Notes under the pieces: generated by a model
What the model was told of the DNA's origin: nothing
Databases searched by the model: none
Seen by the model: the letters and a program-made list of their open reading frames with translations, nothing else
Source: Candidatus Multivoradales bacterium
GTDB taxonomy: Bacteria; Acidobacteriota; Thermoanaerobaculia; Multivoradales; JAHEKO01
NCBI GenBank assembly: GCA_965223155.1
Contig: CBDCVR010000014.1
Span: 192,001 to 256,000, forward strand
DNA length: 64,000 nt
Reading direction: 5' to 3'
Program-made: the position numbers and the translations under genes
Shown here: positions 12,987 to 54,438 of the stretch, piece after piece
How the letters are laid out: every line of letters starts with the position of its first letter
Position numbering within the stretch: position 1 is the first letter of the stretch

Positions 12987-13041
12987 GATCCGTCCCGAAT
13001 TTCAGGTGCCGCGGAGGTCCGCGCCGGCTTCCGGCGCGAGA

Positions 13042-15060: not shown

Positions 15061-15091
15061 CGAAGTTCTGGATCGGCGGCGCCGTTCGGCG

Positions 15092-16402: not shown

Positions 16403-16446
16403 GTAAGGAAGCTCGGCCAGCGGCCGAGCCTGGCTATCATAGCGCC

Positions 16447-37996: not shown

Positions 37997-38257
37997 CCTC
38001 GCAGTTCGTACCAGCGCTTGGCCAGTAGGCCGCGGCTCCGGTTCGATTGGCCCGATTCGGGCCGATCGGGCCAGCCCGCCCCGACGGGCGGGAACCCGGT
38101 GCCGGCCGGGTGGTGTGCGAACGCGCCCGATTGCATAGCGTTCCAAGCAATGTCATACGCGAACGGTCCCGAGGGAGCTATCGCTCGCGCGCTGCCTGGC
38201 CGCGCAACTGCGCCGGCCGCCGGAACCGGCCCGAACCGAACCGAAAGGAGACTCGCC

Positions 38258-40177
38258 ATGCCCAGTTGTCCGAAACCCTCGATCCGCCTTCTCGCCACGG
38301 TCGCGCTGCTCCTCTTTGCGGTAGCCTGCGGCAAGGGCGAAGGCGACAAGAGCGCCGAGGTCGTAGCGGGTGAGGAGGTCTTTACCCGCAATTGCACGGC
38401 CTGTCACACGGTGGGCCAGGGCAAGCGCATCGGACCGGATCTCGCCGGCGTCACCGATCAGCGCGAGCACGACTGGCTGGTGCGCTGGTTGGATGACCCG
38501 ATCGGCATGGCCGAGACCGACCCGATCGGCAAGCGGCTGCTAGCCGAATGGGGCAACATCCCGATGTCCGACTCGAACCTGGATCCCGAGGAGATCGAGA
38601 ACGTCATCGCCTATCTGGCCTGGGCCAGCGCCCAGGGCGGCGCCGAGATCGTTGAGGAAGCTCCAATGGAGCTGACCGCCGAGCAATTCGAGCAGGCCAA
38701 GGACGTCTACTTCGACCGCTGCGCGGGTTGCCACGGGACCCTGCGGGCCGGAGCGACCGGACCCAACATCCAAGTTGCTCGGACCCAAGAGATCGGGACG
38801 ACGGCGATCAAGGCGACCCTGATGAACGGCCTTCCCGGCGGCATGCCTCCGTGGGGCCGGATGGGCATCTTGAGCGAAGAAGAGATCGCGATGATGGCGG
38901 CCTACATCCAGCAAGAGCCGCCGACGCCTCCGCAGCTTCCGTTGGAAGAGATTCAGGAGAGCTGGGATCTCCAGGTTCCCGTAGACGAGCGCCCGACCGA
39001 ACCGCAGACCGACCGCGATTGGGAGAACTACTTCGGCGTGATCCTGCGCGACGCCGGCCAGGTGGCGATCCTGGATGGCGACACCAAGGAGAAGCTCGCC
39101 ATCATCGAGACCGGCTTCGCGGTACACATCCTGCGCTCGTCGTCCACGGGCCGGTACTTCTACGCCATCGGCCGGGACGGCAAGGTCTCGATGATCGATC
39201 TGTGGACCGAGACACCGACCCTGGTGGCTCAGGTTCAGGGCTGCTTCGACGCCCGTAGCGTGGACGCGAGCAAGTTCAAGGGGTACGAGGATCAGCTCGT
39301 GATCGAGGGCTGTTACTGGCCGCCGCAGTACGTCATCTTCGACGGGCAGACCCTCGAGCCGCTCAAGGTCGAGAGTGTTCTTACGCCCACCTACGACACC
39401 AATGAGCCGCTGGACGAGGTTCGGGTCGCCTCTATCGTGGCCTCCCACTTCGATCCGCTCTGGGTCGTCAGCCTTAAGGAGTCCGGACACGTCGGCCTGG
39501 TCGACTACTCGCAGCCTGGATACCCGATGGTGGCCAAGATCCCGACCGAGCGCTTCCTCCATGACGGCGGTTTCGACAACAGCGGCCGGTACTTCCTGGT
39601 CGCCGCCAACATGCGCGACCAGATCGTGGTGGTGGATCTCAAGAAGAAGGAGATGGTCACCAAGTTCAAGACCGGCATCAAGCCGCATCCGGGCCGGGGC
39701 GCCAACTGGGAAGATCCCGAATTCGGATGGGTCAACGCCACCACCCACCTGGGCGAGGGCAAGATGACCGTCTACGGCGCCGACGCCGACAACGCCGAAC
39801 ATGCCTGGAAGGTAGTCCGTGAGGTCGAGCTCCCCGCCAGCGGCGGCCTCTTCCTCAAGACCCATCCCCAGTCGGATTGGGTGTGGTTCGACTCGCCGCT
39901 GGCTGCCGATGAGGAGATGACCCGCCAGATCTGCGCCTATTCGAAGTCCAAGGGCGAGATCGAAAAGTGCTGGCAGCCCACCGACCGCGGCCGCACGGTG
40001 CACTTCGAGTACAACCGTCAAGGCACCGAGGTCTGGGTCTCGGGCTGGGATCGGCGCGGCCAGATCGTGGTCTACGACGACGCCACGCTGGAGGAGATCG
40101 CCCGCCTCGACGAGGATTGGCTGGTCACCCCCACCGGCAAGTTCAACGTCTACAACACGGCGAACGACATCTACTAA
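38258..40177 (+). CDS. nirS: Cytochrome cd1 nitrite reductase with an additional N-terminal heme c domain, lipoprotein
   Basis: AVAC lipobox; CTACH and CAGCH; LRAGATGP, AVHILR, GCYWPPQY, RVASIVASH, FLHDGG, KPHPGRGAN, TPTGKFNVYNT; AAGGAG RBS. Confidence 0.9.
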   Translation: MPSCPKPSIRLLATVALLLFAVACGKGEGDKSAEVVAGEEVFTRNCTACHTVGQGKRIGPDLAGVTDQREHDWLVRWLDDPIGMAETDPIGKRLLAEWGNIPMSDSNLDPEEIENVIAYLAWASAQGGAEIVEEAPMELTAEQFEQAKDVYFDRCAGCHGTLRAGATGPNIQVARTQEIGTTAIKATLMNGLPGGMPPWGRMGILSEEEIAMMAAYIQQEPPTPPQLPLEEIQESWDLQVPVDERPTEPQTDRDWENYFGVILRDAGQVAILDGDTKEKLAIIETGFAVHILRSSSTGRYFYAIGRDGKVSMIDLWTETPTLVAQVQGCFDARSVDASKFKGYEDQLVIEGCYWPPQYVIFDGQTLEPLKVESVLTPTYDTNEPLDEVRVASIVASHFDPLWVVSLKESGHVGLVDYSQPGYPMVAKIPTERFLHDGGFDNSGRYFLVAANMRDQIVVVDLKKKEMVTKFKTGIKPHPGRGANWEDPEFGWVNATTHLGEGKMTVYGADADNAEHAWKVVREVELPASGGLFLKTHPQSDWVWFDSPLAADEEMTRQICAYSKSKGEIEKCWQPTDRGRTVHFEYNRQGTEVWVSGWDRRGQIVVYDDATLEEIARLDEDWLVTPTGKFNVYNTANDIY

Positions 40178-40377: not shown

Positions 40378-41061
40378 ATGTCTCCGAGTCGCATCGTCGT
40401 CGTCGAGGACGAACCCGACATCGTCGACATCCTGCGCTACAACCTCGAAAAGGAAGGCTACCGGGTTGACGCCATTCCGCGCGGCGACGACGCCCTCGAT
40501 GCCATCCGCGAGGCACCGCCGGATCTCATCCTCCTGGACCTCATGCTGCCGGGCCTGGACGGCCTGGAGCTGATGCGGGTCCTGAAACGGGAGCCGGCCA
40601 CGGCCCGCGTCCCGGTCCTCATGCTCACCGCCAAGAGCGAGGAGATCGACCGCATCGTGGGCTTGGAGCTGGGCGCGGACGACTACCTGGCCAAGCCCTT
40701 CAGCCCGCGCGAGGTCGTTCTGCGGGTCAAGGCGGTGCTGCGGCGTACCGAAGCCACCGATCCGATTCTCGACGCGATCCGGATCGGAGGTCTCGAACTG
40801 GACGTCGAAGCCCACCGGCTGCGGGTTGCCGGCGAGCCCGTGGAGCTCACCGCTACGGAGTTCCGGCTCATGAGGGTCCTGATGGAGCGGTCGGGCCGCG
40901 TGCAGACGCGGGCGCAGCTTCTGTCCGACGTCTGGCACTACGCCGACAACGTGGACAGCCGTACCGTCGACACCCACATCCGCAGACTACGAAAGAAGCT
41001 GGGGGCCGAGGCAGGCCGCATCGAAACCGTCATCGGTGTCGGCTACCGGCTAGCCTCGTGA
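40378..41061 (+). CDS. phoB: PhoB-type response regulator
   Basis: Receiver VEDE...LDLMLP...KPF; winged helix SRTVDTHIRRLR...GVGY; pst context. Confidence 0.88.
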   Translation: MSPSRIVVVEDEPDIVDILRYNLEKEGYRVDAIPRGDDALDAIREAPPDLILLDLMLPGLDGLELMRVLKREPATARVPVLMLTAKSEEIDRIVGLELGADDYLAKPFSPREVVLRVKAVLRRTEATDPILDAIRIGGLELDVEAHRLRVAGEPVELTATEFRLMRVLMERSGRVQTRAQLLSDVWHYADNVDSRTVDTHIRRLRKKLGAEAGRIETVIGVGYRLAS

Positions 41062-41071
41062 TTGGGTCCTG

Positions 41072-42304
41072 GTGAAACTCCTTCGGCAGGCTCGCTGGAC
41101 GATCGCCCTTCCCGTTCTGCTGGCCATCGCCCTTCTGGCCATCGCTTCTCTAGACGGGCGGGCCCGGGCGATCCGAACCGGGGCGATCCTCGCCTGGACC
41201 GGTCTCACGATCGCGGGGCTCCAGATCGCCCGCCGCCGGCTGGCCGGCAACGGCAAGATCGCCTATCAAGACGACGGCGCCAAGGAGAACGAAGTCGACG
41301 AACGGGTCCTCACGAGCCTGTCGGAGGGTCTCCTGATCGTCGACTCCGAAGGCCGCCAGCGCTTCGCCAACCACCGCTGGCGAGCGCTCTTCGACGGAGA
41401 CGGAGACACCACAGTCGATGGCGTCGGCCGCCAGGCGGTTCTGGATCAAGTCCTGACCGCGACTCTCGAAACAGGCGCGCCCCAGCGCAGCCAGATGGAG
41501 CTGGCCGGACCCGGCGAGAGCAGGTACATCCTGACGGGCTCGCCGCTGCCGGACTCCGGCGGCGCCGTGGTGCTGGCAGTGGACACCAGCGCCTTCCACA
41601 GCCTGACCGAACACCGACGCGATTTCGTGGCCAACGTCTCGCACGAGCTCAAGACGCCTCTGTCGGCGATCCGCGGTTTCGCCGAGACCCTCCTGGACGG
41701 GGCCATGGAGGATCCCGAGGCCGGGAAGCCGTTCCTCCAGCGCATCGTCAAGCAATGCACCCGGCTGGACGCCCTCCTCTCGGATCTCCTCACTCTCTCG
41801 ACGCTCGAGCACGCCTCATCCCGGCGACCCAATGAGGCTGTCCGACTGGACGCCATCCTGCGCGAAGTGCTCGAGATGCTGGGCGCGCTGGCCACGGCTC
41901 GCAATATCCAGATCTCGACACGACTCGATCGGGTGTCCGAGCTCCACGGCGATCCGGTGGCCCTGGAGCGGCTCTGCGCCAACCTCTTCGAGAACGCGGT
42001 CAAGTACAACCGCGACGGCGGCCGGGTCGACGTGCGCCTCTTCGAAAAGGCCGGCGAAGTGATTCTCGAGATCTCCGATACTGGGATCGGCATTCCGGAA
42101 GCCGCCCTGGACCGGCTCTTCGAACGCTTTTACCGGGTCGACAAGGGACGCTCGCGCCGCGAAGGCGGCACCGGCCTGGGCCTCGCCATCGTCAAGCACG
42201 CGACTCAGATGCACGGCGGGCGGATCGACGTCCACAGCCAGCTCGGGCAAGGCACGACCTTTACGGTGCGCCTGCCGCTAGCGCCTGGGCCGCGCTCGAC
42301 CTAG
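41072..42304 (+). CDS. phoR: PhoR-type sensor histidine kinase
   Basis: RRDFVANVSHELKTPL, NAVKYN and FERFYRVDKGRSRREGGTGLGLAIVKH motifs. Confidence 0.88.
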   Translation: MKLLRQARWTIALPVLLAIALLAIASLDGRARAIRTGAILAWTGLTIAGLQIARRRLAGNGKIAYQDDGAKENEVDERVLTSLSEGLLIVDSEGRQRFANHRWRALFDGDGDTTVDGVGRQAVLDQVLTATLETGAPQRSQMELAGPGESRYILTGSPLPDSGGAVVLAVDTSAFHSLTEHRRDFVANVSHELKTPLSAIRGFAETLLDGAMEDPEAGKPFLQRIVKQCTRLDALLSDLLTLSTLEHASSRRPNEAVRLDAILREVLEMLGALATARNIQISTRLDRVSELHGDPVALERLCANLFENAVKYNRDGGRVDVRLFEKAGEVILEISDTGIGIPEAALDRLFERFYRVDKGRSRREGGTGLGLAIVKHATQMHGGRIDVHSQLGQGTTFTVRLPLAPGPRST

Positions 42305-42457: not shown

Positions 42458-43612
42458 GTGATCAGAAACTTCACCTGGCCTGCCCTTGTCCTCTTGCTGG
42501 TCCTTGCAGCACCGGCGAACGCCGGCGTCAAGGTCTACGAGGACGGCGACAAGTTCGTCGAGATCGGTGGCCGCATCCAGCTTCAGTACACGCGCTCGGA
42601 CCCGGATTCTGGGGAGTCCGAAGACGAGTGGTTCTTCCGCCGCCTGCGGCCTTACATCTCGGGCAGCGTTACCAAGAACTGGGTCGGCAAGTTCCAGTTC
42701 GATCTGGGCAAATCGAGCAATGACAACGAGGTCGCGGTCAAGGACGCCTACATGGCCTACAAGGGCTGGGGCAACAAGACCTTCTACATCGGCAACGTCA
42801 AGTCGGTCTTCTCCCGCGAATTCCTGACCTCGTCCAAGCGCCAGCAGATGATCGAGCGCAGCTTCGTCGGCGACCACAACTATGGCGCTCCCGACCGCCA
42901 GCTCGGCTTTCGGCTGGACGGCGCCAACGACACGGGCAAGGTCGAATGGAAGGTCAACCTCGGCAACGAGGCGATCGATCCCGACGCCAAGAAGCTGGAC
43001 TTCGACTCGCCGGCCAATCGCAACAGCGATTTCAACGACGGCACGGTTCTCGCCGCCCGGGTCGACTTCCACCCCCGGGGCAAGATGAAATTCGACCAGG
43101 GCGATTTCAACACCTCGGGATCCAAGTTCACCGTCGGTCTGGGAGCCTTCTCGTGGTCGAACGACGACGACAACAACACCTATACCGCGGCCGGGCTATC
43201 GACCTCGTCGTCCAGGGTGGACATCGACAGCGCTGAAGGCCTCGAGCTCTCAGCCGGATTTCGCGGCAACGGCCTTTCGGTCGACGCCCAATACAACTCG
43301 ATCTCGGCCGACACCGTGGATCCGAGCTTTACCGGCGGCCTCTACCGGCGCGGCACGACCGACATCGACGCCTACGCCCTCGAGGCCGGATACATGCTGC
43401 CCACGAACAAGGTAGAGCTCGTCCTGGGCGCCGAATCGCTAGACGCCGACAACTACGGCGCCGCCTGGGAACGCAAGTCGCTGGGAGCCAACTTCTTTCT
43501 CAACAAGCACAAGGCCAAGATCCAACTCACTTACCGCATGGGCGAGAACCTCAACGGCTCCCGCGGCGCCGACGAGGACGAGGCGTTCCTGCAGTTCCAA
43601 TTCGTCTTCTAG
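42458..43612 (+). CDS. Phosphate-selective porin (OprO/OprP-like)
   Basis: Signal peptide, GRIQ...FRRLR, amphipathic strands, C-terminal Phe; lies between phoR and pstS. Confidence 0.85.
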   Translation: MIRNFTWPALVLLLVLAAPANAGVKVYEDGDKFVEIGGRIQLQYTRSDPDSGESEDEWFFRRLRPYISGSVTKNWVGKFQFDLGKSSNDNEVAVKDAYMAYKGWGNKTFYIGNVKSVFSREFLTSSKRQQMIERSFVGDHNYGAPDRQLGFRLDGANDTGKVEWKVNLGNEAIDPDAKKLDFDSPANRNSDFNDGTVLAARVDFHPRGKMKFDQGDFNTSGSKFTVGLGAFSWSNDDDNNTYTAAGLSTSSSRVDIDSAEGLELSAGFRGNGLSVDAQYNSISADTVDPSFTGGLYRRGTTDIDAYALEAGYMLPTNKVELVLGAESLDADNYGAAWERKSLGANFFLNKHKAKIQLTYRMGENLNGSRGADEDEAFLQFQFVF

Positions 43613-43769: not shown

Positions 43770-44684
43770 ATGCAACGTAGTTTCGGAATCTTCCCGGGCC
43801 GAACTTCCCCGGGCCGAATTTCCCTCCTGGCCGCCATCGCCCTGGTGGCTCTGGCGTGCGGCGGCGGCGATCGCCAAAACCGCACCGTCCTCCAGAATAA
43901 GGGCTCCGACACCCTGGTCAACGTCGCCCAGGCCTGGGCCGAGGCTTATCGCGAGGTCAATCCCAACATCGCCGTCGCCGTAACCGGCGGCGGCTCGGGC
44001 ACGGGCATCTCGGCGATGATCAACGGCACCGTCGACATCGCCAACTCCAGCCGCAAGATGAAGGATCGGGAGCTGGACCTGGCCCGCGACAACGGCATCG
44101 AGCCGATCGAGCACACGGTCGGGTTCGATGCCTTGGCCGTGTACGTCCACCCCGACAATCCGGTCGCCGGGTTCGATCTGGCCACGCTCGCCGCGATCTA
44201 CGGCGAGGGCGGCGAGCTCGACAGTTGGAGCCAGCTGGGCGTCGAAGTCCCGGGCTGTTCGAGCGACGAGATCATCCGCATCAGCCGGCAGAACAACTCC
44301 GGAACCTACGTCTACTTCAAGGATACGGTCCTGGGCAAGACCGGTGAGTACAAGCTAGGGTCCCGCGACATGCACGGCTCGAAGGACGTTGTGGATCTCG
44401 TGCAGAACACACCCTGCGCCATCGGCTACAGCGGCCTGGCCTACGCCACCGAGTCGGTCAAGATGCCTTGCGTCTCGTCCGAGCCCGAGGGCGAGTGCGT
44501 GACCCCGACGGTCGAAACCGCGATCGAAGGGAGCTATCCGATCGCCCGCCCGCTGTTCATGTACACGGCCGGCAGCCCCGAAGGCGCCGTCAAGGAGTAC
44601 CTCGATTGGGTCTACTCGGAAGCCGGCCAGTGCATCATCCTGGCCAAGGGCTACGCGCCGGCGCGTGCTGTAAGCTGCGAATAG
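43770..44684 (+). CDS. pstS: Phosphate ABC transporter substrate-binding lipoprotein
   Basis: ALAC lipobox; KGSDT, GGGSGTG, SSR, SRQNNSGT and YPIARPLFMY motifs. Confidence 0.93.
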   Translation: MQRSFGIFPGRTSPGRISLLAAIALVALACGGGDRQNRTVLQNKGSDTLVNVAQAWAEAYREVNPNIAVAVTGGGSGTGISAMINGTVDIANSSRKMKDRELDLARDNGIEPIEHTVGFDALAVYVHPDNPVAGFDLATLAAIYGEGGELDSWSQLGVEVPGCSSDEIIRISRQNNSGTYVYFKDTVLGKTGEYKLGSRDMHGSKDVVDLVQNTPCAIGYSGLAYATESVKMPCVSSEPEGECVTPTVETAIEGSYPIARPLFMYTAGSPEGAVKEYLDWVYSEAGQCIILAKGYAPARAVSCE

Positions 44685-44772: not shown

Positions 44773-45864
44773 ATGAGTCACTACGAAGAGCGCCTTCAAG
44801 CAGACCTGGCCAAGATCCGAGGGCGGGTCGATGAAATCGGCAAGCGCGTTCAGGAGGCCATCGCGAGGGCCGTCGACGCCTTCGTCACCGACGATCGCAA
44901 TCTCGCCGGCGACGTGATCTTGGGCGACCGGCCGGTGAACCGCGATGTCCGCGACCTCGACCGCCTGTGCCACGCCTTCGTCGTCCGGCACCTGCCCAGC
45001 GCCGGACACCTGCGTTTCGTCTCCTCGGTACTGCGGCTCAACGTCGAGCTTGAGCGAATCGGCGACTATGCGGTGACCGTCGGGCGGGAAACCGTGCAGA
45101 TCTCGACGGCGCCGCCGCGATCGGTCATTCAGGACATCGAGCTCCTGGCCGGACAGTCCGTCGAGGCGCTGGGCCAGGCGCTCGAGGCCTTCCGTCAGGG
45201 CAACGCCGAACTCGCCCGCGGCACCTGGACCATGGCGGACCAGACCCGCGGCACCTTCCAGAAGGCGTTCAACGATCTCCTCCACGAAGGCAAGAAGGAG
45301 TCCAGGCCGATCAAGGACCTGCTGGCGTTTCTGGTGGTCCTGACCAGCATCGGGCGGGTCGCGGACCAAGCCAAGAACATCTGCGAACAGACCGTGTTCG
45401 CGGTTACCGGCGAGGTCAAGAGCGAGCGTGTGTACCGAATCCTCTTCGTGGACCGCGAGAACGCTTGCCTGAGCCAGATGGCCGCCGCCTTCGCCCGCAA
45501 GGCGTTTCCCGAGAGCGGCGAGTACGACAGCGCCGGCTGGGAGCCGGCGGAAGCGCTGGACGTCCAGTGCCGGCAATTCCTGGATCGCAGCGGCTTCGAC
45601 GTCGCGTCGGCCCAGATCTCGGCGGTGCCCACCCTGACCGAGCAACTGTCCCAGTACCACCTGGTCGTCGGTCTCGAGCCGGGCGTTCGCAAGCATCTGC
45701 CGGCGACGCCGTTCCGCACGGTGGTCTTGGAATGGGACATCGATTCGATCCCTCCGGATCTGGACGCGGAGCGCACGCAAGCGATGCTGGAGGCCTCGTT
45801 CAAGGACCTGGCGGGGCGCATCCGCGCCCTGATGGACACGCTCCGTGGGGACGAGGCCGATTAG
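44773..45864 (+). CDS. phoU: PhoU fused to a C-terminal degenerate ArsC/LMW-PTP-like domain
   Basis: PhoU repeats (ELERIGDYA, RVADQAKNICE), then RILFVDRENACLSQMA...SAG..P...W; GGAGG RBS. Confidence 0.88.
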   Translation: MSHYEERLQADLAKIRGRVDEIGKRVQEAIARAVDAFVTDDRNLAGDVILGDRPVNRDVRDLDRLCHAFVVRHLPSAGHLRFVSSVLRLNVELERIGDYAVTVGRETVQISTAPPRSVIQDIELLAGQSVEALGQALEAFRQGNAELARGTWTMADQTRGTFQKAFNDLLHEGKKESRPIKDLLAFLVVLTSIGRVADQAKNICEQTVFAVTGEVKSERVYRILFVDRENACLSQMAAAFARKAFPESGEYDSAGWEPAEALDVQCRQFLDRSGFDVASAQISAVPTLTEQLSQYHLVVGLEPGVRKHLPATPFRTVVLEWDIDSIPPDLDAERTQAMLEASFKDLAGRIRALMDTLRGDEAD

Positions 45865-45898
45865 TGGAGGCAGTGGAGGCAGTGGAGGCAGTGGAGGC
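45863..45898. repeat. Perfect 9-bp tandem repeat (AGTGGAGGC)x4 at the pstC start
   Basis: Read directly; encodes VEA x4. Confidence 0.9.
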
Positions 45899-46820
45899 CG
45901 TCGGCGACCGCCGGGCGCGACGCCATCTCGCCGACCGGCGTGATCGGCATTGGTACGTAGACAAGCTGGTCCAAGCGCTGGTCTTTGTTGGCGGCATCTC
46001 CGGCATCGTCTTCGTCATCGGCATCTTCGTCTTCATCACCAAGGAGGGCCTGGGCTTCGTGACCCAGGCGTTCGACGTGGCCGAGTTCTTCGGCTCGCCC
46101 AAGTGGCGCCCAACCTCGGAGGCCAACCCGACCTACGGCGCTCTCGCGCTCATCGCGGGCACGGCCAGCGTCACCGGCCTGGCGATGCTGGTGTCGGTGC
46201 CGTTCTCACTGGGCGCAGCGATCTACATCGGCGAGTTCGCCCGCGGCAAGACACGCGAGGCGCTCAAGATCCTGATCGAGCTGCTGGCGGCGATCCCGTC
46301 CGTGGTCTGGGGCTTCATCGGCTTGAGCATCATGAATCCCCTCATCATCAAGACCTTCGACGTGCCGATCGGCTTGAACGTCCTCAACTCGGGACTCATC
46401 CTGGGCCTCATGGCCGCGCCGATCATGACCACGATCGCCGAGGACGCGCTCAAGGCGGTGCCGGACGCCTACCGCGAAGCGGCCGAAGCCCTGGGTGCGA
46501 CCCGCTGGCAGGTCGTGTACAAGGTGGTGTTGCCGGCGGCCAAGAATGGGCTGGCCGCAGCCATTCTGCTGGGAGTCGGCCGGGGCTTCGGCGAGACCAT
46601 GGCCGTGCTCATGGCCAGCGGCCACTCGATCAACCTGCCCACGAGCGTCTTCGATTCGGTACGGGCGCTGACCGCGACCATCGCCGCCGAGCTGGGCGAG
46701 ACCGCGGTCGGCTCAGAGCACTACCAGGCGCTGTTCACCCTCGGCATCTTCCTGTTCGCCGTCACCTTCGCCATCAACCTGACCGCCGATCTCGTGGTCC
46801 GCGGCATTCGCAAGAAGTAG
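45864..46820 (+). CDS. pstC: Phosphate ABC transporter permease
   Basis: ELLAAIPSVVWG, EAAEALGATRWQ, GETMAV and TATIAAELGE. The start is probably one of the repeat GTGs. Confidence 0.93.
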   Translation: MEAVEAVEAVEAVGDRRARRHLADRRDRHWYVDKLVQALVFVGGISGIVFVIGIFVFITKEGLGFVTQAFDVAEFFGSPKWRPTSEANPTYGALALIAGTASVTGLAMLVSVPFSLGAAIYIGEFARGKTREALKILIELLAAIPSVVWGFIGLSIMNPLIIKTFDVPIGLNVLNSGLILGLMAAPIMTTIAEDALKAVPDAYREAAEALGATRWQVVYKVVLPAAKNGLAAAILLGVGRGFGETMAVLMASGHSINLPTSVFDSVRALTATIAAELGETAVGSEHYQALFTLGIFLFAVTFAINLTADLVVRGIRKK

Positions 46821-46822: not shown

Positions 46823-47692
46823 GTGTTCGCGGCCACCGAGCTCAACCGCAAGAACCAGCGCACCGAGCGGCTGGTCAGGCTCCTGTTTCTCTGGATGGCG
46901 GTCATGCTGATCGTCCCGGTGGTGCTCATCCTGGGGATCCTCGTCCACGAGGGTGGCGAGGTCGTTTCCATCGATTTCCTCCTGACCGAGCCTAAGAACG
47001 GCATGACGGCGGGAGGCATCTTCCCGGCGCTCATCGGAACGGTCTGGCTGGTGGCGGTGGCGCTCCTGGCTTCCGTCCCGATCGGCGTGGCCGCGGCTCT
47101 CTATCTCAGCGAATACGCTCCGGACAACTGGCTCACGCGCGCCATCAACCTGGCCATCATCAATCTTGCCGGCGTGCCTTCGATCGTCCACGCCCTTTTC
47201 GGCGTGGGTGCTTTCGTCCTTTTCTTCGGCTTTGGCACCAGCATCCTGGCGGCCAGCCTGACGCTGGCGGTGATGACTCTGCCGGTGGTCATCGTCTCGA
47301 CCCGGGAGGCGCTCCAGGCTGTGCCTCAGGAGTTTCGCGAAGCCTGCTGGAACATGGGCGCAACCCGCTGGCAGACGATCCGGCGCGTGGTGCTCCCCAA
47401 CTCCATCAGCGGCATCCTGACCGGCGTCATCCTCGAGGTCTCGCGCACCGCCGGCGAGACCGCACCGATCATGTTCACCGGCGCGGCCTTCTTCCTGCCC
47501 TTCCTGCCCCAGAGCGTCTTCGACCAGACGATGGCGATGTCCCTGCACCTGTTCGTGGTCTCGACCCAAGTGCCGGGAGTGCCCGAAGCCCTGCCCTTCG
47601 GAGTCGCCCTGGTTTTGATCTCGATCGTCCTGGTCATGAACGCCATCTCCATCGCCTTCCGCATGATCCTGAGGAGCCGCAAGAAGTGGTAG
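46823..47692 (+). CDS. pstA: Phosphate ABC transporter permease
   Basis: GGIFPALIGT, YLSEYA, NLAGVPSIV and AGETAPI motifs. Confidence 0.93.
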   Translation: MFAATELNRKNQRTERLVRLLFLWMAVMLIVPVVLILGILVHEGGEVVSIDFLLTEPKNGMTAGGIFPALIGTVWLVAVALLASVPIGVAAALYLSEYAPDNWLTRAINLAIINLAGVPSIVHALFGVGAFVLFFGFGTSILAASLTLAVMTLPVVIVSTREALQAVPQEFREACWNMGATRWQTIRRVVLPNSISGILTGVILEVSRTAGETAPIMFTGAAFFLPFLPQSVFDQTMAMSLHLFVVSTQVPGVPEALPFGVALVLISIVLVMNAISIAFRMILRSRKKW

Positions 47693-48480
47693 CCGCGGAC
47701 GAAATCCGGCAGTCGGCTCCAGCCCGGGAGCCCATGCTGGAGGTCAAGGACCTGTCCATCTACTACGGCGACAAGCGGGTGCTCGACCGCGCTTCGTTCG
47801 AGGTGTACGAGCACGAGATCTTCGGCATCATCGGCCCCGCCAACAGCGGCAAGACCTCCTTCCTGCGAGCCCTCAACCGCATGGAGCTCTTCACGCCGCG
47901 AATGCGCATCGAGGGGACCATCCGGCTCGACGGACGCGACATCACGAGCTGGAGAAACGTCTACGCCTACCGGCGCCAGATCGGAGTGGTCTTTCCGCTG
48001 CCGGTTGGCCTCCCTCTGTCGGTCTACGACAACGTCGCCCTGGCTCCACGCCTGGCCGGCATCAAGAAACGGGCCGAGCTCGACGTCATCGTCGAGCGCT
48101 GCCTGACCCGGGCGGCTCTCTGGGACGAAGTCAAAGACCGGCTAGACGCCCTCGGCAGCCTGTTGTCCGGCGGCCAGCAGCAGCGCTTGACCATCGCGCG
48201 GGCTCTGTCCCAAGACCCGGATCTGTTGCTGCTGGATGAGTTCTCGATCGCGGTCGACCCGGTGACCACGATGCGTATCGAAGAGGTCCTGAAGGAGCTC
48301 CGTGACGAGATCACCATCGTCCTGGTCACCAATCTGGTCCAGCAAACCCGGCGGTTGGCAGACCGCACGGCCTTCTTCCTATCCGGGGACCTGGTCGAGG
48401 TCGGCGAGACCGCCGCCCTCTTCGAAGGCAAGGTGCGGGACCAGCGCACCAGCGACTACCTGGAGGGCAAGTTTGGCTGA
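47686..48480 (+). CDS. pstB: Phosphate ABC transporter ATPase with degenerate Q-loop and H-switch
   Basis: GPANSGKT, intact LSGGQQQRL, LLLDE; VFPLP instead of VFQxP and VTNL instead of VTHN; ends YLEGKFG. Confidence 0.88.
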   Translation: MVAADEIRQSAPAREPMLEVKDLSIYYGDKRVLDRASFEVYEHEIFGIIGPANSGKTSFLRALNRMELFTPRMRIEGTIRLDGRDITSWRNVYAYRRQIGVVFPLPVGLPLSVYDNVALAPRLAGIKKRAELDVIVERCLTRAALWDEVKDRLDALGSLLSGGQQQRLTIARALSQDPDLLLLDEFSIAVDPVTTMRIEEVLKELRDEITIVLVTNLVQQTRRLADRTAFFLSGDLVEVGETAALFEGKVRDQRTSDYLEGKFG

Positions 48481-49279
48481 CGCCCTCCAGACCGCCGCCG
48501 CCGAGACGGATTCCGTGCCCGCCATCCGCACCGAGGAGCTGAACCTCTGGTACGGCACGTTCCAGGCGCTGTTCGATCTCGACCTCGAGATCAAGCAGGG
48601 CCTCATCACCTCCCTCATCGGTCCCTCCGGCTGCGGCAAGTCCACCTTCCTGCGCAGCGTCAACCGCATCACCGAGCGACTCGGCTACGTGCGTACGACC
48701 GGCCGTATCGAGGTGCTGGGGCACGACATCGTCGGTGCCGACGCTGAGCTGGTCCAGGTTCGCAAGGAGGTAGGCATGGTCTTTCAAAGACCCAATCCCC
48801 TGCCCCTTTCGATCCGCGACAACGTGCTCTTCGGGTACCGCCTGCACGAGCCGGCGGCCCGGCGCTTGTCGGCCAGGCAAGCCGACGAGATCGTCGAGAA
48901 GGCCCTGCGCGAGGTGCTGCTCTGGGACGAGGTCAAGGACCGGCTGGGCCGCAACGCCATCGAACTGTCTCTCGAAGCCCAGCAGAAGCTCTGCATCGCC
49001 CGGCTGCTGCCGGTCAAGCCCGAGGTGCTGCTGATGGACGAGCCCTGCTCCGCTCTCGATCCCGCCGGCACCGAAGCGGTCGAGGAGCTCCTCTGGCGCC
49101 TGGCCGGCAAGTACACCATCCTGATCGTGACCCACAACATGGCTCAGGCTCGGAGAGCCAGCCACGAGTGTATCTTCATGCTCCTGGGCCGGGTCATCGA
49201 GCACGGCCTGACCGAAGACGTCTTTCTGGCGCCGGAAAGTCAGAAGACCGCGGACTACATCGAAGGCCGGTACGGCTAG
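48473..49279 (+). CDS. pstB: Phosphate ABC transporter ATPase with degenerate signature motif
   Basis: GPSGCGKST, VFQRPNP, MDEPCSALDP and VTHNM intact; signature reads LSLEAQQKL; ends YIEGRYG. TTG start assumed. Confidence 0.9.
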   Translation: MADALQTAAAETDSVPAIRTEELNLWYGTFQALFDLDLEIKQGLITSLIGPSGCGKSTFLRSVNRITERLGYVRTTGRIEVLGHDIVGADAELVQVRKEVGMVFQRPNPLPLSIRDNVLFGYRLHEPAARRLSARQADEIVEKALREVLLWDEVKDRLGRNAIELSLEAQQKLCIARLLPVKPEVLLMDEPCSALDPAGTEAVEELLWRLAGKYTILIVTHNMAQARRASHECIFMLLGRVIEHGLTEDVFLAPESQKTADYIEGRYG

Positions 49280-49995
49280 CCGGCTTTTCTCACGGCCGTT
49301 GCCAGCTCGCGTCGCCGCGCCACGACGAATGGCAGATACCAGGCCGCGAAGAACAGCCAGGCGACGCCCAAGCCGATCACCAGATACCAGGGCCAGGGAC
49401 CCAGATAGTCCAGGAGCGACGCTCCGGCGGGCTTCCTGACCAGGTACATGTGATTCGTGCCCAGGAGAAGATTCAGCGGCAAGAGCAGCGCCGCGTAGCC
49501 GGCGGTGGCCAGCCAGGCCTTGCCGACCGAGCCCCACCGGGGCCGGAAACCGAAGACAAAGGTCGCGTAGAGCACCGCCAGGATCAGGGCGGCGTGCCCA
49601 AGGATGAAGTTCAGAAACTCGGGATGAGGGAACCCGAAGCGGATGTCCGGCGTGAGCAGCGCCTGAAGCGTACCCGCCATGCACCAAAAGTACGCCACCT
49701 CGTAGACGGCGTAGCTCCGCCGCCAGAGCATCCAGCCGCAGAGGTAGTACAGGAGGCCGCAGAGATGAAACGGCAGGACTTCGAGCAGCGGGCGCCCGGC
49801 GACGAGCCATTGGTGGACCATCCAGACGGTTCGATAGGCGACCAGGGCCACCGCCAGGACGAGCGCGCTTCGACGGGCGGCCGCCGGCGACTGGGACCGC
49901 GCCGCCCAGGCAAGTCCGATGCAGGCAGCCAGGGCAACCGCCACCGTCCCCAGGTGCCCCGATCCAAAGAGGACAAAGGGAGGGTGCTGGGGCAT
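49276..49995 (-). CDS. YwaF/TIGR02206-family membrane protein
   Basis: FVLFGSGH, LPFHLC, QALLTPD, NHMYL and SLLDYLGPWPWY motifs. Confidence 0.85.
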   Translation of the reverse strand: MPQHPPFVLFGSGHLGTVAVALAACIGLAWAARSQSPAAARRSALVLAVALVAYRTVWMVHQWLVAGRPLLEVLPFHLCGLLYYLCGWMLWRRSYAVYEVAYFWCMAGTLQALLTPDIRFGFPHPEFLNFILGHAALILAVLYATFVFGFRPRWGSVGKAWLATAGYAALLLPLNLLLGTNHMYLVRKPAGASLLDYLGPWPWYLVIGLGVAWLFFAAWYLPFVVARRRELATAVRKAG

Positions 49996-50006
49996 TTCCG
50001 GATCGC

Positions 50007-50534
50007 CTAGTCGAGCACGACCGAGGCCGCGGGATCCCGTTCGTAGATCGTCTCGGGACGCGTCTCCCAGATCCCGTCCCGCAGCATCCGCGTTCGCACC
50101 CGCAGACGGCCGTCGGCGAGGACCTCCTGGGTCGCCTCGACCTCGGTAACGCCGCCGGCGTGTCCCTGCACCGCTTCCCGGCTGGTCAACTTGCCGTTGT
50201 CGAACTCCATGGTGCCCTCGGTGAAAAATCCCGCGTTGGTGAAGTAGTAGTACACCAGACTCTCGCGCGCCGGGCTCCACACCACGAAGGTCTCGCCGCC
50301 ATAGGCTCCATCGCCAACCGAATGCCGGATGCGGACGGCGTGGCCGGAGAGCGTCCAGTCCCAGCGGGCGACGTCGTAGGTCCCCTTTTCGGGATCCACG
50401 AGGGCCTTCCAGGTCGCGCCGACGAACGGCTCGAAACCGTCCAGGGACGAATGGGGCTCGGCGGCGAGCACGGTGCCCGCGCCACCCGCGCTCAGGAGCA
50501 GAGCCGCGGCGAGAGTCCCCAGGACACGACGCAT
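50007..50534 (-). CDS. Hypothetical secreted protein
   Basis: Signal peptide followed by a beta-strand-rich body. Confidence 0.7.
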   Translation of the reverse strand: MRRVLGTLAAALLLSAGGAGTVLAAEPHSSLDGFEPFVGATWKALVDPEKGTYDVARWDWTLSGHAVRIRHSVGDGAYGGETFVVWSPARESLVYYYFTNAGFFTEGTMEFDNGKLTSREAVQGHAGGVTEVEATQEVLADGRLRVRTRMLRDGIWETRPETIYERDPAASVVLD

Positions 50535-50650
50535 GGCTGCATTCTAGCCGTCCGGCCCCATGCCCTCGCCAGGCTCCCTGCGCCAGCGCTCCGCGGACCC
50601 GGCCCGTAGGTTGCCGGCAAACCACCCGAGGACTCCGACCGTATGATGAA

Positions 50651-50682
50651 ATGAACGGCCGTTGATATGAACGCGCAGTCAT
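50651..50682. promoter_or_regulatory. ArsR/SmtB-type operator(s) at the arsR start
   Basis: ATGAA-CGGCCG-TTGAT (50651-50666) matches ATCAA-N6-TTGAT at 9 of 10 positions. A weaker copy ATGAA-N6-GTCAT overlaps the ATG. TATGAT at 50642. Confidence 0.65.
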
Positions 50683-51026
50683 CCAAGAACGCTTCCCCTT
50701 CCGGCCCTTCCGGCCCTTCCGGCCCTTCCGGCCCGTCCTGCGCCTCCCGGCTCAAGGTTCTCTCGGACCCGACGCGGCTCAAGGTGGTTCAGACGCTCCT
50801 GGAGGAGACCCTGCACGTCGGCGAGCTCCAGCAACGCCTCGAGATCGAGCAGAGCCTCCTCTCCCACCACTTGCGGGTCTTGCGCGAGGCGGGTCTCGTC
50901 CACGCCGAGCGCGACGGCAAGGCGGTCCTCTACCGGGTCGCGCCTGAAGCCGTGGTCGAGTCCCGGGGCGCCGCGATCGACCTGGGTTGTTGCGTCTTGT
51001 CCTTCGACGAGGAGGCAGGCTCGTGA
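50667..51026 (+). CDS. ArsR/SmtB-family repressor with an N-terminal Cys and a C-terminal Cys-Cys pair
   Basis: LKVLSDPTRL, QSLLSHHLRVLREAGLV...DGKAVLY; SCAS and DLGCC. Confidence 0.9.
   Translation: MNAQSSKNASPSGPSGPSGPSGPSCASRLKVLSDPTRLKVVQTLLEETLHVGELQQRLEIEQSLLSHHLRVLREAGLVHAERDGKAVLYRVAPEAVVESRGAAIDLGCCVLSFDEEAGS
50697..50732. repeat. Perfect 9-bp tandem repeat (CCTTCCGGC)x4 in the arsR 5' end
   Basis: Read directly; encodes PSG x4. Confidence 0.9.
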
Positions 51027-51904
51027 TCGGCTCGCGACTGCGCCGGTCCCTGGCGGCCGCCGCTCTTACGGTAGCCGGAGCCGGAACCTGGGCCTGCGCG
51101 CCCCGCGGCGGCGAAGCGTCGGCGGGCGAGCTTGCGGGCAAGCTGGTCCTGACCGGATCGAGCACGGTGGCGCCGCTCGCCGCCGAGATCGGTAAGCGCT
51201 TCGAGCAGCGCTACCCGGGCACGCGCGTCGAAGTGCAGACCGGGGGATCGTCCCGAGGGATCGCCGACACCAGGAACGGCATCGCGGACTTCGGCATGGC
51301 GTCGCGGGCGCTCGCCGACAGCGAACGCGACCTCGAGGCCTACACCATCGCCCGGGACGGCATCGCGGTCATCGTCCACGCTTCGAACCCCGCCGCAGAA
51401 CTGGACCGGGAACAACTCGCCGCGATCTATCGCGGCTCGATCACCAACTGGTCCACTCTCGGAGGCGCGTCCGAGCCGGTCACGGTCGTCACCAAGGCTT
51501 CGGGTCGCGCGACCCTGGACGTGTTCCTGAGCTACCTCGGGATGACCGAGCCCGAGATCGAGGCCGAGGTCGTGATCGGCGACAACCAGCAGGGCATCAA
51601 GACCGTGGCCGCGGTGCCGGGCGCCATCGGCTACGTCTCGATCGGGGTCTCCGAGGCGGCGATCGCTGCCGGCGAGCCCATCCGCATGCTGGCAACGGGA
51701 CCGGTTTCGCCAACCGCCGCCAACGTCGCCGCGGGCAGCTTTCCCATCACCCGGCCACTCAATTTGCTCCACCGCAACGACGATCCGCTGAGTCCCCTCG
51801 AGCTGGCCTTTCTGGACTTCGCCACCTCGGGGGAGGTCGACGACCTGGTGACCTCCCTGGGCTTCGTACCCCCGATGCCTCCGGCGACTCTGGTGCCTCT
51901 CTGA
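51023..51904 (+). CDS. pstS: Second PstS-family substrate-binding lipoprotein
   Basis: TGSSTV, TGGSSRG, MASR, AIGYVS and FPITRPL motifs; GTGA overlap with arsR. Confidence 0.85.
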   Translation: MIGSRLRRSLAAAALTVAGAGTWACAPRGGEASAGELAGKLVLTGSSTVAPLAAEIGKRFEQRYPGTRVEVQTGGSSRGIADTRNGIADFGMASRALADSERDLEAYTIARDGIAVIVHASNPAAELDREQLAAIYRGSITNWSTLGGASEPVTVVTKASGRATLDVFLSYLGMTEPEIEAEVVIGDNQQGIKTVAAVPGAIGYVSIGVSEAAIAAGEPIRMLATGPVSPTAANVAAGSFPITRPLNLLHRNDDPLSPLELAFLDFATSGEVDDLVTSLGFVPPMPPATLVPL

Positions 51905-51906
51905 GC

Positions 51907-52761
51907 TTGCCGGCACGCGGCGACCGGATTCTGAGCGGGGTCTTGGGCCTCGCGGCGGCGGCGACCGGCTCGATCGTCTGCCTCATCCTGCTCTTTCTGG
52001 CGGCGGGCTCCTGGGATGCGCTGGTGACCGTCGGTCCCTGGCGCTTTCTTGCCGATGACGGCTGGTTCCCCGCCGCCGCCTCGGCACGCTTCGGGCTGGT
52101 CCCGATGCTGGTCGCCACCGCTCTGCTCGCAGTCGGCGCGATCGCGATTGCCGCTCCCGCCGGTGTCGCGGTGGCGGTCTACGGCCACTTCTTGGCGCCG
52201 CGGCCACTCGCCACCGTCATCCGGCGCACCGTCGAGATCCTGGCCGGCGTTCCCTCGGTCGTCTTCGGCTTCTGGGGCCTGGTGACCGTCGTCCCGATCC
52301 TGCAGCGAATTCAGCCGCCGGGACAGAGCCTGGCCGCCGGCGTTCTGATCCTGGCCCTCATGATCCTGCCCACGGTCGCCCTCATGACCGAGGCGGCCTT
52401 CCGAGCGCAGCCTCCGGAGCTGGCCGCGGCCGGGGAGGCCCTGGGCCTCGGCCGGTGGACGCAGATCCGGGGAGTCGCTTTGCCGGTGGCAGTGCCGGGC
52501 ATCGCCAGCGCCCTGCTCCTCGCCACGGCGCGCGCCCTCGGGGAGACCATGGCGGTCCTGATGGTCTGCGGCAACGTCGTCCAGCTCCCCTCGAGCCTCT
52601 TTGATCCCGTCCGGTCGCTCACCGCCAACATCGCGCTCGAGATGGCCTACGCCACCACCCATCATCGCTCGGCTCTGTTCGTCTGCGGACTGGCCTTGCT
52701 GGGCGCGGTGGCGGCACTATTGGCCACCGCCGAACGCTTCGGAGGGACCCGCCACGCCTGA
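51907..52761 (+). CDS. pstC: Second phosphate ABC permease
   Basis: EILAGVPSVVFG, RALGETMAV and LTANIALEM motifs. Confidence 0.9.
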   Translation: MPARGDRILSGVLGLAAAATGSIVCLILLFLAAGSWDALVTVGPWRFLADDGWFPAAASARFGLVPMLVATALLAVGAIAIAAPAGVAVAVYGHFLAPRPLATVIRRTVEILAGVPSVVFGFWGLVTVVPILQRIQPPGQSLAAGVLILALMILPTVALMTEAAFRAQPPELAAAGEALGLGRWTQIRGVALPVAVPGIASALLLATARALGETMAVLMVCGNVVQLPSSLFDPVRSLTANIALEMAYATTHHRSALFVCGLALLGAVAALLATAERFGGTRHA

Positions 52762-53635
52762 TCGCACCCTGCCCCGCTCGGCTGGCAGAGGCATCGAGCC
52801 CTGGATTGTCGCCGCCCTCGGCGCGGTTGCGTTCCTGGTGGTGGCGACCTTCGGCTGGATCCTCGTGGACTTGATCCTGGCCGGTGCGGCGCAGCTTGAC
52901 TGGAACTACTTGACCGGCGAGCCTCTCGACGCCGGCCGCCGCGGCGGCATCGGTCCGATCATCGTGTCCACCCTGGCGATCCTAGCCGTCTGCCTGGCCG
53001 TCGCCGTCCCGCTCGGCCTGGGCTCGGCGGCTTTCCTGGCCGAGGTGGCGCGCCGCGACGGTTCGCTGGGGCGCTGGATCCGGCGCGCGCTGGACCTATT
53101 GGCCGCCGTTCCCTCGATCGTATTCGGCCTCTTCGGCAGCATCTTCTTCTGCGACTTCCTGGGGCTGGGTTTTTCCATCCTGGCGGGCGGACTGACCCTG
53201 GCCTGCATGGTCCTTCCGATCTTGGTCCGCACCCTGGAGACCGGATTCCGGTCGGCGCCCGACGAGCTGCGCCTCGCGGCGAGCGCCTTGGGGTTGTCAC
53301 GCGCGGCAACGCTCCGGCATCTCCTCATGCCCGCCGCCCGACCGAGCTTGATCGTCGGGCTGGTGTTGGGCATCGGACGGGCCCTGGCCGAGACCGCGGC
53401 TCTTCTCTTTACTAGCGGCTATGTCCCGCGAATGCCGTCCTCGGTCCTCGACTCCGGCCGCTCGCTCTCGGTGCACATCTACGACCTTGCCATGAACGTC
53501 CCGGGGGGCGAGCCCAGGGCCTACGCCGCGGCATTGGTCCTCATCGTCCTGGTGGCGGCCGTCAACTCGCTGGCGTCAGCCCTGACGGTCCGTTGGGTCG
53601 GCTCGAGCCAGAGCCGAGCAGAGGCCGTCAGGTGA
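52754..53635 (+). CDS. pstA: Second phosphate ABC permease (start codon appears to be ACG)
   Basis: GGIGPIIVST, LAAVPSIVFG and RALAETAAL motifs. GGAGG lies 8 nt before an in-frame ACG; next in-frame GTG is at 52838. Confidence 0.85.
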   Translation, partial: TPDRTLPRSAGRGIEPWIVAALGAVAFLVVATFGWILVDLILAGAAQLDWNYLTGEPLDAGRRGGIGPIIVSTLAILAVCLAVAVPLGLGSAAFLAEVARRDGSLGRWIRRALDLLAAVPSIVFGLFGSIFFCDFLGLGFSILAGGLTLACMVLPILVRTLETGFRSAPDELRLAASALGLSRAATLRHLLMPAARPSLIVGLVLGIGRALAETAALLFTSGYVPRMPSSVLDSGRSLSVHIYDLAMNVPGGEPRAYAAALVLIVLVAAVNSLASALTVRWVGSSQSRAEAVR

Positions 53636-54438
53636 CCGGCAGTCCGGCCGAGCCCGGCCGCGACCAGAGCGGCGGCTGCGCCCTAGAGGTCCGCGACCTC
53701 GCGGTCTCTTACGGCGCACAGCGGGCACTCGAGGGCATCGACCTGGACGCTGCGCCGGGCTCGATCACCGCTCTCGTCGGCCCGTCGGGCTGCGGCAAGA
53801 GCTCATTTCTCCAGGCTCTGAATCGACTCACGGATCTCATCCCGGGATGCACGGTCGAGGGCTCGGTGCGCGTCGACGGCACCGAGATCCTGACCGAATC
53901 CTGCGACCTGCGGACCCTGCGCCGCAGGATCGGCATGATCTTCCAGAGGCCCAACCCGTTTCCGCTCTCGATTCGAAAGAACTTCACCCTCCCCTTGCGG
54001 GAGCACGGGGTCCGAGATCCGGTCCAGATCCAGGAGCGCATCCAGGACGCGCTTCGAGCCGTGGGCCTCTGGGATGAGGTCTCGGATCGCCTGGACAGCC
54101 GTGCCGACACCCTCTCGGGAGGCCAGCAGCAGCGTCTGTGCCTGGCCCGGGCGCTGGTGCTGGAACCTGAGATGGTTCTCCTGGACGAGCCCTGCTCGGC
54201 TCTGGATCCGCTCGCGGCCGGCGTCGTCGAGGACCTGATCGCTTCGCTCCGAGGGCGGTACACCGTGGTGATCGTCACCCACAATCTGTCGCAGGCCCGG
54301 CGTCTGGCCGACCGCGCCGCGCTCTTCTGGCTGGTTGAGGGCGCCGGACGCCTGGTGGAAGAACGCGACACCGAAACCTTCTTCAGCCAGCCACGGCACC
54401 GGCTCACCCGGGACTACGTCGCCGGCGTCCGCGGCTGA
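53632..54438 (+). CDS. pstB: Third PstB ATPase, all motifs canonical
   Basis: GPSGCGKS, IFQRPNPF, LSGGQQQRL, LDEPCSALDP, VTHN. Confidence 0.92.
   Translation: MTGSPAEPGRDQSGGCALEVRDLAVSYGAQRALEGIDLDAAPGSITALVGPSGCGKSSFLQALNRLTDLIPGCTVEGSVRVDGTEILTESCDLRTLRRRIGMIFQRPNPFPLSIRKNFTLPLREHGVRDPVQIQERIQDALRAVGLWDEVSDRLDSRADTLSGGQQQRLCLARALVLEPEMVLLDEPCSALDPLAAGVVEDLIASLRGRYTVVIVTHNLSQARRLADRAALFWLVEGAGRLVEERDTETFFSQPRHRLTRDYVAGVRG

Follow-up and report, generated by a model that had tools for sequence, protein, structure and literature searches.

Complementary motif changes in a tandem PstB pair point to a phosphate importer with two unequal ATP sites

Our analysis concerns two adjacent genes, pstB1 and pstB2, predicted to encode ATP-binding subunits of a phosphate-specific (Pst) ATP-binding cassette (ABC) importer. 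They lie in a 64,000-nucleotide stretch of DNA, here called the window, from a Candidatus Multivoradales bacterium (GenBank assembly GCA_965223155.1, contig CBDCVR010000014.1, positions 192,001 to 256,000 of the forward strand). PstB1 and PstB2 depart from the canonical PstB motifs in complementary ways, and the same departures recur, side by side, in related loci from several phyla. Taken together, these observations point to a transporter in which one ATP site is complete and the other degenerate.

The pst operon and its two divergent ATPases

The two genes close a plus-strand phosphate (Pho) cluster with the order pstS, phoU fusion, pstC, pstA, pstB1, pstB2, so that the pair shares an operon with pstS, pstC and pstA, as is expected of the PstB family. 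Related loci show the same gene order wherever upstream sequence is present. The genes of the operon are as follows (positions are those of the window).

43770-44684, plus strand: pstS, phosphate-binding protein (TIGR02136, 218.8 bits, cut-off 206.6; PBP_like_2)
44773-45864, plus strand: PhoU fused to a low-molecular-weight (LMW) phosphatase/ArsC-like domain (TIGR02135, 131.3 bits, cut-off 130.25; alternative start GTG 44713)
about 45864-46820, plus strand: pstC permease (BPD_transp_1; start uncertain, GTG 45864, 45873, 45882 or 45891)
46823-47692, plus strand: pstA permease (BPD_transp_1; the stop overlaps the pstB1 start by 7 nucleotides, nt)
47686-48480, plus strand: pstB1 (GTG start; best NCBIfam match TIGR00972 PstB, 282.5 bits)
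48473-49279, plus strand: pstB2 (TIGR00972, 311.4 bits; TTG start, alternative GTG 48515)

The open reading frame (ORF) listed for pstB2 from 48302 is too long, and the likely start is TTG 48473, which has GGAGG 6 nt upstream and overlaps the pstB1 stop by 8 nt. As the pstB1 GTG likewise overlaps the pstA stop and GGAGG precedes the starts of both pstB genes, pstA, pstB1 and pstB2 look translationally coupled. At the other end of the permease genes, where the phoU stop meets the pstC start (45864-45899), the 9-nt unit GTGGAGGCA stands four times in tandem; in the pstC frame the copies read Val-Glu-Ala four times over, and each contains a possible GTG start.

All three PstB proteins of the window, the third being PstB3 of a separate cluster downstream, have the equivalog TIGR00972 as their best, full-length match, with PstB3 reaching 315.4 bits, and all three, the canonical PstB3 included, fall below its curated cut-off of 343.2 bits. 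PstB1 furthermore matches the solved E. coli PstB (9k3x) over its full length (residues 17-264 against 10-257, E 1.2e-59). The motifs that set the pair apart are located as follows.

47833-47859, plus strand: PstB1 Walker A, GPANSGKTS
47989-48003, plus strand: PstB1 Q-loop, VFPLP, with Pro104 (47995-47997) at the Gln position
48163-48177, plus strand: PstB1 signature, LSGGQ, intact
48223-48261, plus strand: PstB1 Walker B and D-loop, LLLLDEFSIAVDP, with Asp184 and Glu185 retained
48325-48336, plus strand: PstB1 H-loop, VTNL, with Asn216 (48331-48333) at the switch His position
48965-48979, plus strand: PstB2 signature, LSLEA instead of LSGGQ

Outside its signature, PstB2 is canonical (Walker A GPSGCGKST, Q-loop VFQRP, Walker B VLLMDEPCSALDP, H-loop VTHN), and in a three-way PstB alignment all five motifs of PstB3 are canonical, making this protein an internal control. 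A sequence-only reading of the window had claimed that PstB1 keeps LSGGQ while losing the Q-loop Gln and the switch His, that PstB2 keeps Walker A and B, Q-loop and His with an altered signature, and that the third PstB is fully canonical; translations, alignment and motif coordinates bore this out in each case and at the places given. Its further remark that the Walker A of PstB1 is altered stands insofar as the motif differs from the PstB-typical GPSGCGKST, but the difference is no defect in itself, since the sequence fits the P-loop pattern GxxxxGK[ST].

In an ABC dimer, the subunits meet head to tail: one subunit provides the Walker A, Walker B, Q-loop and H-loop motifs of an ATP site, and its partner provides the signature. 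A canonical PstB capable of acting as a homodimer carries all of these motifs in one protein, as PstB3 does, whereas PstB1 lacks the Gln and the His and PstB2 lacks the Gly-Gly of the signature. A PstB1 homodimer would have both sites without Gln and His, and a PstB2 homodimer would have Leu-Glu in both.

Conservation of the changes and of the gene pair

Among the 120 best database matches to PstB1 (72-100% identical, the window's own protein among them), the Q-loop region VVFPLPVGLP, Asn at the H-loop His position, the signature LSGGQQQ and Asp-Glu-Phe after Walker B are each present in 120 of 120. In an alignment of 66 sequences, the stretches Gly100-Pro110, Leu160-Ser175, Asp184-Ser187 and Val214-Gln220 of PstB1 are free of any variation; the Walker A Lys56, Asp184 and the catalytic Glu185 are invariant as well, and the A-loop Tyr27 is nearly so. 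The 120 best matches to PstB2 all have Walker A, the Q-loop Gln, Asp-Glu-Pro and VTHN, and their ten commonest signature variants, which account for 100 of the 120, all read L(S/A)LE(E/Q/A)QQKL. In a 62-row alignment, Leu165, Leu167, Glu168, Gln170, Gln171 and Lys172 of PstB2 do not vary. With whole stretches of PstB1 and the signature residues of PstB2 held invariant, selection is acting on the unusual residues, which are not drifting. Conservation in orthologs, on which the sequence-only reading hung, is thus found on both sides: in 120 of 120 homologs for the PstB1 substitutions, and at Leu167 and Glu168 in every row of the PstB2 alignment.

We then asked how the two proteins are distributed by scanning one genome per species, 185,579 species in all, for DNA encoding the PstB1 Q-loop peptide GVVFPLPVGLP. 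This yielded at least 116 matching stretches, two of them from one genome bin, and flanking sequence was taken for 80 of these loci, all from species other than that of the window, with the exact Q-loop peptide as the sole selection criterion. Because the loci were selected on the Q-loop only, the other motifs and the neighboring genes are independent tests; by the same token, divergent family members could not surface, since the scan required an exact peptide. The match lies inside a PstB1-type reading frame in 80 of 80 loci. Asn occupies the H-loop position in 76 of 76 readable loci, the other four being cut by contig ends, and LSGGQQQ is present in 79 of 79. A PstB2-type gene follows pstB1 immediately in 70 of 70 loci with at least 1,300 nt of downstream sequence; of the remaining ten, six reach the start of PstB2 and four break off within pstB1. 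Measured from the PstB1 stop, the conserved PstB2 core sets in after a median of 41 nt (75 loci; range 4-301 nt in 74, with one masked), and the PstB2 signature takes the form L[S/A/Q/R]LE in 70 of 72 readable loci, the two exceptions being a masked stretch and a frameshifted gene (L041). The predicted co-occurrence of the VTN and LSLE variants was therefore seen in all 70 loci long enough to tell. On the sequence evidence, these paired and invariant changes are far beyond chance and are not noise. An apparent fusion of PstB1 with PstB2 in one locus (L074) was discarded as an artifact of a masked run of N between the genes.

By phylum, the matches listed, at least 116 in number, comprise Pseudomonadota (38), Gemmatimonadota (19), Planctomycetota (16), Acidobacteriota (14), Myxococcota (7), Rhodothermota (5) and six further phyla with one each, with 11 matches lacking a phylum. 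Named carriers include Accumulibacter, Dechloromonas, Thiodiazotropha and the cultured Saltatorellus ferox Poly30. A tblastn search of 72,556 plasmids with PstB1 and with P0272, a member of a related subfamily described below, returned only canonical pstB, all below 60% identity and in 149 records for each query, and thus no plasmid-borne copy.

In the 67 complete locus pairs, PstB1 proteins share on average 73.5% pairwise identity and PstB2 proteins 71.9%; in 70% of pairs PstB1 is the better conserved of the two, and their divergences correlate (r = 0.74). Within one locus, PstB1 and PstB2 are 32-40% identical. The ratio of nonsynonymous to synonymous substitution rates (dN/dS, Nei-Gojobori), a check suggested along with the initial prediction, has medians of 0.25 for PstB1 and 0.26 for PstB2, both well below 1 (824 of 2,211 pairs, with dS of 0.05-1.5 in both genes). 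As judged from the sequences, both genes are under purifying selection, with no sign of relaxed constraint on PstB1. These values bear on the possibility that the two proteins form alternative homodimers under different conditions or that pstB1 is a decaying duplicate. The tandem pstB genes of Enterococcus faecalis are a precedent for the former, being partly redundant, with an excess of PstB2 replacing PstB1 (PMC12096839, in excerpt). Both E. faecalis proteins have canonical motifs, which makes theirs a different case, and in the present pair neither homodimer would have a complete site. Decay is at odds with a PstB1 at least as conserved as its partner and with a dN/dS of about 0.25 in both genes, and on these grounds we reject the idea that pstB1 is a pseudogene. 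As a whole, this alternative is scarcely credible.

In a tree of 86 PstB-family proteins (a quick IQ-TREE search with Shimodaira-Hasegawa-like approximate likelihood ratio test, SH-aLRT, support), PstB1 and PstB2 form clades with support of 100 and 99, respectively, that are not sisters. The same subgroupings appear in both clades, for example, Accumulibacter with Dechloromonas and two Myxococcota loci together, as would be expected if both genes are inherited and transferred together. The separate, nonsister clades and the low identity within a locus mark the pairing as old and stable and not as the product of a recent duplication. Two loci assigned to different phyla, L008 (Binatia) and L022 (Longimicrobiales), carry near-identical PstB1 and PstB2 proteins, with end branches of 0.04-0.08, reflecting either a recent transfer or a binning error.

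A second subfamily related to PstB1 was found among 1.84 billion cluster representatives (members P0252, P0272, P0281 and P0297) and groups with PstB1 in the 86-protein tree with support of 97. Its motifs are a Q-loop VFA(T/V)P, an H-loop VTNN, an intact LSGGQ, Asp-Glu-Pro and the D-loop SGLD; among 120 homologs of P0272, 119 have Ala in place of the Gln and 119 have Asn in place of the His. With these two replacements, this sister subfamily suggests that asymmetric Pst ATPases may be even more widespread. Other PstB-like representatives (P0294, P0325, P0305, P0372, P0365 and P0390) have the signatures LSAEQ, LTEEQ, LSLGQ, LAPEQ and LTADA with mostly normal P-loop sides and are possible partners in other asymmetric pairs. 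A protein-atlas look-up gave generic PstB clusters as its only matches.

Two probably unequal ATP sites and the PhoU fusion

A comparison of 68 PstB1 and 68 PstB2 proteins with 27 canonical PstB proteins allowed us to locate the fixed differences. In PstB1, they are Ser52Ala and the change from Lys-Ser-Thr to Lys-Thr-Ser in Walker A, Gln104Pro in the Q-loop (Pro in 68 of 68 versus Gln in 27 of 27) and Pro108Gly after it, Pro186Phe after Walker B, Ser188Ile and Leu190Val in the D-loop, and His216Asn and Asn217Leu in the H-loop; nearly all fixed changes of PstB1 lie in or beside these motifs, with a few others elsewhere. PstB2 differs by Gly167Leu, Gly168Glu and Arg172Lys in the signature (Leu-Glu in 68 of 68 versus Gly-Gly in 27 of 27) and at a few nonmotif positions. 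The differences thus map to the P-loop side of PstB1 and the signature of PstB2, that is, to one and the same composite site, as had been proposed from the window by itself. The pair thereby shows marks of a degenerate/consensus dimer: its deviations are confined to one composite site, the second site would be fully consensus, and the genes for two different ATP-binding subunits stand together in 70 of 70 loci scored from the PstB1 side.

From these sequence patterns, we consider it likely that PstB1 pairs with PstB2 in a heterodimer that has a consensus ATP site and a degenerate one; the partnership would be obligate because neither homodimer would have a complete site. In this scenario, the two proteins would be different ATP-binding subunits of one PstS-PstC-PstA-PstB1-PstB2 importer, placed under PstC and PstA. 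Site 2, composed of the P-loop side of PstB2 and the LSGGQ of PstB1, would be fully consensus and most likely hydrolyzes the ATP that drives transport. Site 1, composed of the P-loop side of PstB1 and the LSLE of PstB2, would carry every family-specific defect: the Gln of the Q-loop and the His of the H-loop would be missing, and a bulky Leu and an acidic Glu would replace the two glycines that close over the gamma-phosphate. As Lys56, Asp184, Glu185 and the aromatic Tyr27 are kept, site 1 probably still binds nucleotide, but it probably hydrolyzes ATP poorly or not at all and may serve as a hinge or regulatory site, with about one ATP spent per cycle. Whether one or two ATP are used per substrate alters the attainable gradient and the energy cost (PMC3971661, in excerpt), and a halved ATP cost of phosphate uptake is a plausible advantage that such a design might confer.

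Several points weigh against this interpretation. The binding of PstB1 to PstB2 is deduced from sequence, and so are the proposals that site 1 has lost hydrolysis or plays a regulatory part. Co-occurrence was counted from the PstB1 side, on which the scan was keyed. In L054, Walker B of PstB2 reads Asp-Ala-Pro, not Asp-Glu-Pro, leaving the supposed active site without its catalytic Glu; if real, the Ala would disable that site in this organism, although it may be an assembly error. The dN/dS medians come from a simple method that is biased in GC-rich genes, and dS is saturated in most pairs. Finally, the catalytic Glu185 is invariant in PstB1, whereas many classical degenerate sites have lost the Walker B Glu, a replacement that is frequent, though not universal, in exporters. 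With the Walker A Lys, the A-loop Tyr and Glu185 all retained in PstB1, residual activity at site 1 is possible, and the term dead used in the sequence-only reading is stronger than the evidence warrants. A complex prediction of PstB1 and PstB2 with two ATP and two Mg scored 0.65, compared with 0.46 for a control in which an unrelated protein took the place of chain 1, which is evidence neither for nor against pairing.

The retained residues would also suit a functional heterodimer in which both sites hydrolyze ATP and the Pro, Asn and Leu-Glu substitutions modulate rate or specificity without abolishing catalysis. Lys56, Asp184 and Glu185 never vary and Tyr27 hardly does, and the invariance of the variant residues themselves suggests a selected, working site. 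Against this, three separate catalytic elements of one site are altered together, and changes of the H-loop His or the second signature Gly have each severely cut ATP-dependent function elsewhere: replacement of the His in other ABC ATPases nearly abolishes hydrolysis, and placing an acidic side chain at the second Gly, of which the CFTR mutation G551D is an example, blocks the ATP-dependent function of that site. On balance, we find two hydrolyzing sites rather unlikely.

The phoU gene of the operon raises the question of signaling. The phosphatase domain of its product matches LMWPc and arsC_pI258 weakly, under their cut-offs. Across 65 such fusions, the position of the catalytic Cys is taken by Asp (58), Gly (5), Glu (1) or Ala (1), and that of the catalytic Arg is Arg in one; the domain in the window has neither residue. 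With Cys absent from all 65 fusions and Arg present in one, the phosphatase-like domain is a pseudoenzyme throughout. The fusion lies between pstS and pstC, not at the operon end, in 64 of 74 loci with at least 3,400 nt of upstream sequence and is absent from ten (six Acidobacteriota, three Longimicrobiales and one Binatia), in which the PstB1/PstB2 pair is still present. The suggestion that the pair tracks the PhoU fusion is accordingly correct as a description of the usual arrangement but not as a strict or obligatory link. Upstream of the operon lie genes for a two-component system, homologs of which occur within 10 kb in many related loci.

40378-41061, plus strand: PhoB-like response regulator (Pfam Response_reg and Trans_reg_C)
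41072-42304, plus strand: PhoR-like histidine kinase (Pfam HisKA and HATPase_c)

PstB1 could conceivably act outside the transporter, as a catalytically silent, ATPase-like regulator partnering, for instance, PhoU or PhoR, with transport driven by a PstB2 homodimer. For E. coli, an interaction of PhoU with PstB and PhoR is reported in a work cited in PMC12976172, and the frequency of the fusion (64 of 74 loci) would suit such a role. A PstB2 homodimer, though, would have LSLE in both sites and no consensus site, the invariant LSGGQQQRLTIARALS stretch of PstB1 would have no obvious purpose unless it completes the ATP site of a partner, and the pair is kept in the ten loci without the fusion. 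We therefore judge this reading to be distinctly improbable.

Returning to the heterodimer, site 1 might be more than a lost ATPase site, having been selected as a sensor or latch that holds nucleotide without turning it over and reports the state of the transporter, or the energy and phosphate status of the cell, to PhoR via PstB1 and the PhoU-pseudophosphatase fusion, all at half the ATP cost, in a module that has spread as a unit across at least 10 phyla and is present in the polyphosphate accumulators Accumulibacter and Dechloromonas. We put this forward tentatively, as a proposal with the odds against it, and any regulatory or signaling role of the degenerate site is speculation. If it is true, however, it could represent a distinct and ecologically important mode of phosphate uptake control.

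Neighboring genes and relation to known systems

Further genes lie around the operon; the porin gene belongs to the Pho cluster, and the second pst cluster begins 1.4 kb downstream of pstB2.

42458-43612, plus strand: phosphate-selective porin O/P family protein (Pfam PF07396, E 1.1e-14)
50667-54438, plus strand: second pst cluster (arsR, pstS, pstC, pstA, pstB3)
50667-51026, plus strand: arsR
50987-51904, plus strand: pstS of the second cluster
51907-52761, plus strand: pstC of the second cluster
about 52601-53635, plus strand: pstA of the second cluster
53593-54438, plus strand: pstB3
49276-50682, minus strand: TMEM164-related integral membrane acyltransferase (TIGR02206, 162 bits)
38018-40177: NirS-like cytochrome cd1 protein that carries two c-type cytochrome domains at its N-terminus, encoded immediately upstream of the PhoB-like and PhoR-like genes

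The acyltransferase gene is convergent with pstB2, their stop codons overlapping by 4 nt, and its true start is probably well inside the long ORF, because the TIGR02206 match covers only the C-terminal 220 residues. The second pst cluster has no phoU, carries an ArsR-family regulator in front and is followed by a transglycosylase gene. Its PstS scores 167.3 bits against TIGR02136, under the 206.6 cut-off, and may bind phosphate or an analog such as arsenate. Three Gammaproteobacteria/Lysobacterales loci, L019 (about 10704-16202), L048 (about 11432-16910) and L033 (about 11350-15795), likewise have a second set directly after the PstB1/PstB2 operon, in which PstC and PstA are both long and the PstB is canonical; in L019 and L048 the next gene encodes a plain PhoU, and L033 stops at a contig edge. 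Asymmetric and canonical systems thus coexist side by side in these loci, as in the window.

A design with one normal and one crippled ATP site is familiar from drug exporters, whereas for phosphate importers it seems to be undescribed so far. In full-text literature, with most subscription journals not covered, we found no description of a degenerate or asymmetric PstB pair, and neither a 2026 paper on E. coli PstSCAB structures (PMC12976172) nor one on the Accumulibacter Pho regulon (PMC11361876) mentions such a pair in the excerpts available. The asymmetry is easily hidden, because annotation names both genes "phosphate ABC transporter ATP-binding protein." Work on degenerate ATP sites has dealt almost exclusively with exporters; an asymmetric importer, if confirmed, would let one ask whether one ATP per cycle suffices for high-affinity uptake and would show what a silent site contributes. 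The module is common, with at least 116 matches over several phyla, and its carriers Accumulibacter and Dechloromonas matter for biological phosphorus removal from wastewater. There the module adjoins phoB and phoR genes that one study calls laterally acquired (PMC11361876, in excerpt).

Compared with E. coli PstSCAB (9k3x, 9k3y and 9k3s), the present system has the same operon parts, PstS, PstC, PstA and PstB-family ATPases. In E. coli, one PstB lies under PstA and one under PstC (PMC12976172, in excerpt), but the two are identical and form two consensus sites, whereas here two different subunits would form one degenerate site. Also unlike in E. coli, phoU stands between pstS and pstC, and its product carries a fused pseudophosphatase domain. 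Two adjacent pstB genes in one pst operon are also found in Firmicutes, in E. faecalis and, as PstBA and PstBB, in Bacillus subtilis, where the two have been modeled as a heterodimer (PMC11466899, in excerpt). The two E. faecalis proteins share about 60% identity, are partly interchangeable and have canonical motifs (PMC12096839, in excerpt), in contrast to the 32-40% identity and complementary defects seen here; according to the same excerpt, no earlier study had compared tandem pstB paralogs.

Among importers, RbsA and NupO resemble the pair in that sequence analysis has suggested one noncompetent ATP site (PMC11466899, in excerpt), but they belong to a different importer class, with two ATPase domains in one polypeptide and loss of the Walker A Lys among the defects. 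The closest likeness is to the heterodimeric exporters TM287/288, TAP1/2, CFTR, BmrCD, PatAB and MsRv1273c/72c, which have two different ATP-binding domains with the deviations in one composite site and the other site complete. Such combinations of degenerate and consensus sites are frequent in exporters, and the hydrolysis of one ATP per cycle has been proposed for the heterodimeric ones (PMC3971661, in excerpt). In TM287/288, Asp replaces the Walker B Glu (same source), whereas in PstB1 this Glu is retained and the residues lost are the Gln of the Q-loop and the His of the H-loop. Furthermore, in contrast to these exporters, whose ATP-binding domains are fused to their membrane domains, PstB1 and PstB2 are separate subunits of a binding-protein-dependent importer.

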